Under the pieces are notes generated by a model. That model saw only the letters and a list, made by a program, of their open reading frames with translations. It made no database searches and was not told the origin of the DNA. From Escherichia coli (GTDB lineage: Bacteria > Pseudomonadota > Gammaproteobacteria > Enterobacterales > Enterobacteriaceae): a DNA stretch of 64,000 bases. Position numbers and translations under genes: made by a program. The DNA lies in NCBI RefSeq assembly GCF_041886205.1, contig NZ_CP169029.1; one strand, given 5' to 3'. Of the stretch, positions 19,868 through 21,830 are shown piece after piece; position 1 is the first letter of the stretch, and every line of letters starts with the position of its first letter.

Positions 19868-20355
19868 TATGACGCTGCTTGTTTAAAGCTGACTGGTTTT
19901 ATTGGAATAGTGCAATAGTCAACATCATACATTATAACATCAGTTACTTTTCCACAAAGAAACTAATCCATTTAAGCGAATATCTCTGCACCTAATAGTT
20001 ATAAATGCCATTTAACAGCCAGTTATAGTACCACTTGAAACTATATTACCAACAATAATTAATAGCTTTCGTAACAATTTCCTTATCTTTAATTTGTATT
20101 TTGCTAAGATTTATCTTATGCTCACAAGTCGTATTTCCAGAGGGGGATAGTTAACAATCTTATATTTCCCTCTGCGCGCCTTTCCTACCCGCAGTATATA
20201 GTGCAAGCGGTATGAGGAAAGGGAGATTTCACAAGGATGTTATACTCAAAGTAGACAATCCTGATCTCAAGCGTACGTATTGTCCATGCGATGAATAAAG
20301 GAAAAGTTATGAAACACAAGCTTTCTGATCCTACCCACGTAATGTGGACACGGCC

Positions 20356-21222
20356 CTAAGCGAGATTATGGTTTTCAAATTGTTCCGGGCTGAGACCGCC
20401 ACAGGCACTGTGACGACGCCAGCGATTGTAATCACACTCGATATAATTAAACACCGTTGCCCGCATTATTTCCCGGCTGCTAAAGCGTTCTCCATGGATA
20501 CATTCCACTTTCAGCGAATGAAAGAAGCTTTCCACGCAGGCATTATCGTAGCAGCAACCTTTTGCGCTCATACTTCCACGCAGATTATGCCGCTTCAGTT
20601 GCGCCTGATAATCTGCTGAACAGTACTGGCCTCCACGGTCCGTGTGAACGATAACGTTCCGGGGCCTCTTACGCCGCCACAGCGCCATCTGCAGGGCATC
20701 GCAGGCCAGTTGCGCCGTCATGCGTGGCGACATTGACCAGCCAATAACGGCACGTGACCACAGGTCAATGACCACTGCCAGATACAGCCAGCCTTCATCT
20801 GTACGTAAGTACGTGATGTCTCCTGCCCACTTCTGGTTCGGGCCACTGGCGTAAAAATCCTGCTCCAACAGATTTTCTGACACAGGCAGGCCGTTTGCGC
20901 GGTAGCTGACCGGGCTGAACTTCCGGGAGGCCTTTGCCCTCAGTCCCTGACGGCGCAGGCTTGCCGCCACGGTTTTTACGTTAAAGGGGTAACCCTGAGC
21001 ACGCAGTTCATCCGTCAGGCGTGGGGCACCGTAACGCTGTTTTGACCGGGTAAAAGCCGCGAGGACAACGCTGTCGCAGTGTTGGCGGAACTGCTGACGC
21101 GTGCTTATCCTTGTCCGCCGCTGACACCACGTATACCAGCCGCTGCGGGCCACCCGGAGCACGCGGCACATTGCTTTGATGCTGAACTCAGCCTGATGTT
21201 TTTCAATAAAGACATACTTCAT
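20356..21222 (-). CDS. insF: IS3 transposase OrfB (InsF), DDE integrase domain
   Basis: 288 aa, recognised IS3 InsF sequence. Confidence 0.95.
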
Positions 21223-21518
21223 TTCAGGCGCTTCGCGAAGTATGTCGCGGCCTTTTGGAGGATAGCCAGCTCTTCATCCCGTTCTGCCAGCTGGCGTTTG
21301 AGACGTGCAATCTCGGTAGACATCTCCAGTTCACGTTCAGAAGACGTCTGCTGATTTTGCTGTTTACTGCGCCAGTTGTAGAGTTGTGATTCATACAGGC
21401 TGAGTTCACGGGCTGCGGCAGTAACACCGATGCGTTCAGCAAGCTTCAGGGCTTCACTGCGAAATTCAGGCGAATGCTGTTTACGGGGTTTTTTACTGGT
21501 TGATACTGTTTTTGTCAT
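21219..21518 (-). CDS. insE: IS3 OrfA (InsE), HTH protein; -1 frameshift partner of InsF
   Basis: ORF 21219..21527; start at [10 protein letters not shown]; stop overlaps insF ATG (ATGA). Confidence 0.9.
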
Positions 21519-21830
21519 GTGAGTCACCTCTGACTGAGAGTTTACTCACTTAGCCGCGTGTCCACTATTGCTGGGTAAGATCAGCTGCTGGCGCTGTCGG
21601 CACGGCGACAGTTGTCGGTGTGGCAACGGCTGTTGGTGTGGCGACGTTGGCAGTTGTTGCAGCAAATGACAGTGGCGATGGCGGTTCTCATAACACCTCA
21701 ACCACCACGTCCACTACACGCTAATACTGCTTTAACGCGTCGAAATTAAAGTTAAATGATACCCGGTTGCGATATTCGTACCGGGCTTTAGAGATTTGCA
21801 TTTTTTTAATTAACCTTTCAAGGATTAAAG

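Follow-up and report, generated by a model that had tools for sequence, protein, structure and literature searches.

An intact IS3 without a target-site duplication and a 148-bp loss in gfcA, which heads the group 4 capsule operon, in Escherichia coli

In the Escherichia coli DNA analysed here, gfcA, the gene for a threonine-rich inner membrane protein and the first of the group 4 (O-antigen) capsule operon, is split by a complete IS3 element that is flanked by unequal triplets and that stands where 148 bp of the gene are missing. We consider it likely that a canonical insertion took place first and that an IS-mediated deletion then removed the 148 bp together with one copy of the target-site duplication. 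The window refers to the whole stretch of DNA that was analysed (64 kb); coordinates are window positions unless they are given as nucleotides (nt) of gfcA.

The IS3 copy and the remnants of gfcA

A preliminary description of the window had reported a complete IS3 of 1258 bp after nt 17 of gfcA, and this placement holds to the base (20326-21583, with the gfcA ATG at 20309). Both terminal inverted repeats are present, with 29 of 40 positions matching between IRL and IRR. The termini read TGATCC... and ...AAGATCA, and on the window strand the element opens with TGATCCTACCCACG on the left and closes with GCTGGGTAAGATCA on the right (Table 1), in agreement with the characters by which IS3 was recognised: a length of about 1258 bp, imperfect terminal inverted repeats of about 40 bp, a TG start and a CA end. 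When a -1 shift was simulated at the A AAA G motif, the two reading frames were joined into a predicted OrfAB of 387 aa, as expected of an IS3 with two ORFs and a slippery site. OrfB scores 340.9 bits against the IS3-family model NF033516 of NCBIfam (cut-off 160), OrfA aligns with the N-terminal portion of that model, and the whole element differs from RefSeq-annotated IS3-like element copies at 17-20 of 1258 nt (about 98.5% identity). Judged from its sequence, this copy looks intact and functional. A search for a second IS3 inside the 64-kb window found none, each IS3 end being present once.

The copy is a variant. Relative to the K-12-like IS3 it has 18 differences, and 17 of them fall in the 161 nt next to the IRR end (20326-20486), clustering at the IRR end and the 3' end of orfB, a distribution which suggests a mosaic element.

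What is left of gfcA was identified by sequence and by context: its nt 1-17 and 166-306 show no difference from the gfcA of the genome wlxctx60 (WP_001295358.1), with cspH upstream and gfcB-etk downstream. The 5' remnant encodes MKHKL and ends two bases into the Ser6 codon, which the first base of the IS completes (TC|T); read-through from the gfcA ATG into IS3 yields a peptide of 16 aa, with a stop after 16 codons inside the IS. The 3' remnant had been described as resuming in frame at the right junction. It does begin exactly on a codon boundary (codon 56), but the two fragments add up to 17 + 141 = 158 nt, which is not divisible by three, and head and tail are therefore out of frame with each other. 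On the reading frames that remain, gfcA is destroyed in the window strain. The 34-aa tail ORF had no exact match when its sequence was looked up.

The triplets that flank IS3, TTC on the left and GCT on the right, differ as first described, and no 3-bp target-site duplication is present. Such a duplication marks a fresh insertion, not the IS3 element itself, and its absence here is explained by the 148-bp deletion. The left junction can be placed only to within 2 nt, since gfcA goes on with TGCAATCC and the IS opens with TGATCC, so that TG is common to both; the right junction has no ambiguity.

Table 1. Features of the interrupted gfcA locus (window positions) and other IS3 sites recovered at gfcA in E. 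coli genomes (numbered by gfcA nucleotide, negative values lying upstream)
Feature	Position	Strand or orientation	Description
gfcA 5' remnant	20309..20325	plus	ATG + 14 nt; identical to wlxctx60 gfcA nt 1-17
IS3 element	20326..21583	minus	transposase genes antisense to gfcA
IS3 IRR end	20326..20365		begins TGATCCTACCCACG; abuts gfcA 5' remnant
IS3 orfB	20356..21222	minus	288 aa, DDE transposase part, -1 frame relative to orfA
IS3 orfA	21219..21518	minus	99 aa counted from ATG
A AAA G slippery motif	21252..21256	minus	IS position 328; -1 programmed frameshift
IS3 IRL end	21544..21583		reverse complement TGATCTTACCCAGC; abuts gfcA 3' remnant
gfcA 3' remnant	21584..21724	plus	141 nt including stop; codons 56-101; AAGAVGT...STTR*
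Operon downstream of gfcA	21831..29133	plus	about 100% identical to wlxctx60
IS3 site, ML35	-106..-104		duplication TGC
IS3 site shared by EA2 and F3_13_1_3	-53..-51		duplication ACA
IS3 site, TA8571	76-78		duplication ACA
IS3 site, Tig228	117-119		duplication AAC
IS3 site, mip270_04	about 131	opposite	4-bp repeat GTGC
IS3 site, PSS-12	144-146		duplication TGC
IS3 site, tcmA_3	178-180		duplication GTC
IS3 site, 1919D62	266-268		duplication GTT
IS3 site, USMARC-49610	279-281		duplication CTC
IS3 site, CP131	282-284		duplication AAC

Empty-site comparison and origin of the insertion

The two nearest genomes, wlxctx60 and 6EVA, have gfcA intact and the locus free of IS3. The 20 kb to the right of IS3 are 100.0% identical to wlxctx60 and 99.9% identical to 6EVA, and the window flanks show no mismatch in 3837 nt on the left and one mismatch in 2016 nt on the right with respect to wlxctx60. 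Intact gfcA measures 306 nt (101 aa), close to the length of about 300 nt given in the preliminary description, and the loss of about 150 bp proposed there becomes, on alignment to the genes of wlxctx60 and 6EVA, a loss of nt 18-165, exactly 148 bp. The locus thus combines an intact IS with flanks that are collinear in the empty-site reference, an intervening segment that is gone and no duplication, which is the picture of an IS-adjacent deletion. The earlier proposal of an IS3-adjacent deletion or of recombination between IS copies is supported by these collinear, otherwise identical flanks. Both flanks belong to gfcA and run in one direction, from which it follows that the deletion was local and that no distant IS3 took part in an exchange; such a loss yields no reciprocal product, and no reciprocal junction is therefore expected. 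In 5,426 complete E. coli genomes neither window junction, left or right, is present as one unbroken full-length piece, and exact-pattern scans of metagenome contigs found neither junction.

The source of the element can be traced. The window IS3 shows no difference from a copy at 2980688-2981945 of wlxctx60, which adjoins a papB/focB-like gene, and the other IS3 copies recovered at gfcA all depart from it by 17-20 nt. This identity, together with the distance from the other gfcA-borne copies, points to a recent, independent event that involved the lineage's own element. By the same comparison the insertion is placed after the split from wlxctx60, and the downstream genes gfcB to etk, all of them open, fit that timing. 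The wlxctx60 copy itself is also without a matching duplication, its flanks being CAG and ATT.

In K-12 MG1655, IS1D lies 34 bp upstream of an intact gfcA, as the preliminary description had stated for an IS1 upstream of the gene, and the window has no IS1 at that place. With its IS3 variant identical to the wlxctx60 copy, the window locus bears out the idea of an independent inactivation, and the comparison of the two loci marks the event as separate from the K-12 insertion. In both strains the seven-gene group 4 capsule operon has an IS at its 5' end; the K-12 element, in contrast, belongs to the IS1 family, measures 768 bp, lies outside the gene and is accompanied by no deletion.

Other insertions at the gfc 5' end

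We searched 5,426 complete E. coli genomes for the succession of left flank, IS3 and right flank. IS3 was recovered at the gfcA locus in the window orientation in 36 genomes, and a query with reversed IS3 recovered one. Apart from the window, 11 distinct IS3 sites fall between gfcA nt -106 and +284 (391 bp, equivalent to window 20204-20593), in 37 of the 5,426 genomes (Table 1). A clean 3-bp duplication is found at nine of them (eight sites and the one shared by EA2 and F3_13_1_3), and since such a duplication is usual at this locus, its absence in the window is a real departure from the norm. The gfcA of mip270_04 diverges locally from the reference and carries the only IS3 in the opposite orientation; the IS3 of F3_13_1_3 is 1214 bp long, which corresponds to an internal loss of 44 bp.

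The closest analogue of the window is LR-46 (NZ_AP027537), which has its right junction (-53) in common with EA2 and F3_13_1_3 and has lost, on the IRR side, the ACA duplicate and 15 bp (TTATACTCAAAGTAG). Comparison of LR-46 with EA2 and F3_13_1_3 indicates that parental and deleted forms both exist in nature at the gfcA locus. LR-46 and the window agree in the locus and orientation of IS3, in the loss of the duplication and in the absence of DNA beside the IRR end. LR-46 differs in the extent of the loss (15 bp and the duplicate), in its location in the promoter region with gfcA intact, in its K-12-like IS3 variant and in having a known parental form.

The orientation of these insertions is biased, with ten of the 11 other sites sharing that of the window (binomial p = 0.012), an orientation which we take, on K-12 coordinates, to be co-directional with replication. 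A control search of the same design centred on the gfcD/gfcE boundary recovered no genome in either orientation. The density of sites was assessed with a conservative Poisson bound, in which 22,506 IS3-like places were treated as independent and spread evenly over the genome, most of these copies being in fact shared by descent. The expected number of sites in 391 bp is then 1.8 and the probability of 11 or more is 3e-6; this value rises to p = 0.001 if half of the genome tolerates insertion and to p = 0.11 if only a quarter does. That the window represents the twelfth independent hit of a so far undescribed 391-bp IS3 hotspot, with 11 of 12 hits in one orientation, the transposase antisense to gfc and the remainder of the operon free of IS3 insertions, is possible rather than probable. 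Our literature search found no published description of IS3 in gfcA or of such a hotspot pattern. A mimic of the IS3 inverted repeats was considered as the cause of a hotspot and rejected, the best ungapped matches to IRL and IRR being no better than those of 600-bp chunks elsewhere in the window.

Many E. coli genomes carry two inverted IS3 copies 1-3 kb apart (for example NZ_CP062853, 2630878-2635342), and such pairs occur at various loci, among them bluF/ycgZ, espS and prophage regions, which suggests that local re-insertion of IS3 is frequent.

Insertions of IS1 are found here as well. IS1A has entered the 3' end of gfcA in RM9513 and stands in place of the whole gene in NCTC11121, the latter an IS1-associated deletion. 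The region is present in 3,673 genomes, of which about 101 are without a near-complete copy of it. The gfc 5' end is disrupted repeatedly in natural E. coli, by IS3 at no fewer than 12 sites and by IS1 at no fewer than three, K-12 included, and secondary IS-associated deletions have occurred there at least three times.

Probable route to the deletion and probable consequence for the capsule operon

The two-step order that we prefer is modelled on analogous cases. An IS3 from the strain's own complement would have entered gfcA by copy-out/paste-in and made a 3-bp duplication; an IS-mediated deletion would then have taken 148 bp of gfcA and one duplication copy from one side, with the outcome of an intact IS3 whose flanks were never neighbours in the original gene. 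The deletion may have been a transposase-promoted intramolecular adjacent deletion, or a second IS3 may have inserted in direct orientation 148 bp away and been followed by homologous recombination between the copies. Considering that most IS3 hits in this region share their orientation (10 to 1), a second, directly oriented insertion nearby is plausible. Sequence alone separates neither transposase action from homologous recombination nor one deleted side, and hence one original junction, from the other. The two shared nucleotides (TG) at the left junction would also fit a microhomology-mediated deletion, yet an overlap of this length is at chance level. Our preferred order would put the original site at gfcA nt 166-168 (duplication GCT), with a leftward deletion from the IRR end to nt 17, a preference taken solely from the analogy with LR-46 and from the way in which other sites cluster at nt 117-180. 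An intermediate would have IS3 with a duplication either at nt 166-168 (expected junction k-mers GGCGTGGCT and TGATCCTACCC) or at nt 15-17 (expected junction k-mers TAAGATCA and TTCTGCAATCC), and neither of these parental alleles was found in the 5,426 complete genomes or in metagenome contigs. The intermediate may have been short-lived, which is compatible with its absence from these collections.

Deletions of rbs mediated by IS150 in the E. coli long-term evolution experiment were reportedly described by Cooper et al. in 2001. In the same experiment, all 14 of 14 IS150 deletions without a duplication had a prior IS at the same position (PMC11708052). These IS3-family deletions resemble the window in their structure, an intact element with non-duplicated flanks and contiguous host DNA gone on one side, and in their explanation, an insertion and then a deletion (PMC11708052). 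The window differs in that it comes from a natural isolate, involves IS3 proper, lost 148 bp within a single small gene and has an intermediate that was not recovered. For IS3 itself, transposase has been observed to produce adjacent deletions on reporter plasmids (PMC8860574), and a fused orfA-orfB raises their number, according to the account of Sekine 1994 given in PMC11708052. The plasmid deletions of Sekine et al. 1994, which PMC11708052 and PMC8860574 cite, are like the window in that IS3 deletes outward from its own end; they were obtained by over-production of transposase on plasmids, whereas the window records a natural chromosomal event. Mechanistically the window adds nothing new, adjacent deletion by the IS3 family with loss of the duplication being already known.

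These precedents bear on the other ways in which the junctions could have formed. A single step, in which IS3 entered a broken or processed target or its ends attacked sites 148 bp apart so that no duplication was ever made, is improbable: insertions without duplication at rearrangement breakpoints have been proposed for IS5 and IS481 (PMC11708052), and the lack of a duplication-bearing intermediate for the window junctions in the genomes and metagenome contigs searched fits this route, yet the 14 IS150 cases were all two-step, nine IS3 sites at the gfcA locus carry 3-bp duplications, and in LR-46, the other deletion case, a parental form with the duplication survives. Still less probable is an assembly artefact in which two directly repeated IS3 copies in gfcA, together with a 148-bp spacer, were collapsed into one. 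Comparable real structures stand in the complete genomes LR-46 and NCTC11121 (IS1-associated loss of gfcA), the window is otherwise colinear with and essentially identical to wlxctx60, and no direct evidence speaks for a collapse, even though a collapsed repeat would predict what is seen, a single IS with unmatched flanks and no spacer, at a putative IS3 hotspot with a same-orientation bias. Hardly credible is the later entry of IS3 into a pre-existing short allele of this repeat-rich, threonine-rich gene, whose low-complexity Thr/Gly/Ala runs could in principle vary in length, as a length polymorphism before IS3 is effectively refuted by the full 306-nt gene of wlxctx60 and 6EVA, the missing segment stops exactly at both IS3 termini with no duplication in the flanks, and 17 + 141 nt are out of frame and would not have made a viable allele.

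With an insertion followed by a deletion as the preferred history, the consequence for the operon can be considered. The near-complete identity of the downstream genes to those of wlxctx60 (Table 1) means that damage to the operon is confined to its 5' end. The 1258-bp IS3, running in the opposite direction, now lies between the gfc promoter and six intact genes, gfcB-gfcE, etp and etk. Outward promoter and terminator consensus sites were sought at the junctions and none was found above shuffled expectation. We infer a probable polar effect of IS3 that silences the group 4 capsule operon, and a very recent mutation has probably made the strain capsule-negative. In K-12, the IS1 insertion has been regarded as the reason for a presumed abnormal expression of the operon (PMC2516531).

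The recurrence of IS3 at the gfc 5' end admits two explanations, target choice by IS3 and repeated selection for silencing, between which the data do not distinguish. If target choice is responsible, IS3 would respond to an unrecognised regional and strand-specific targeting cue. If selection is responsible, natural selection would recurrently have favoured silencing of the group 4 capsule operon by polar insertions at its 5' end. The gfc 5' end thus offers a convenient natural system in which to study the target choice of IS3 and whether loss of the group 4 capsule has been repeatedly favoured in E. coli.
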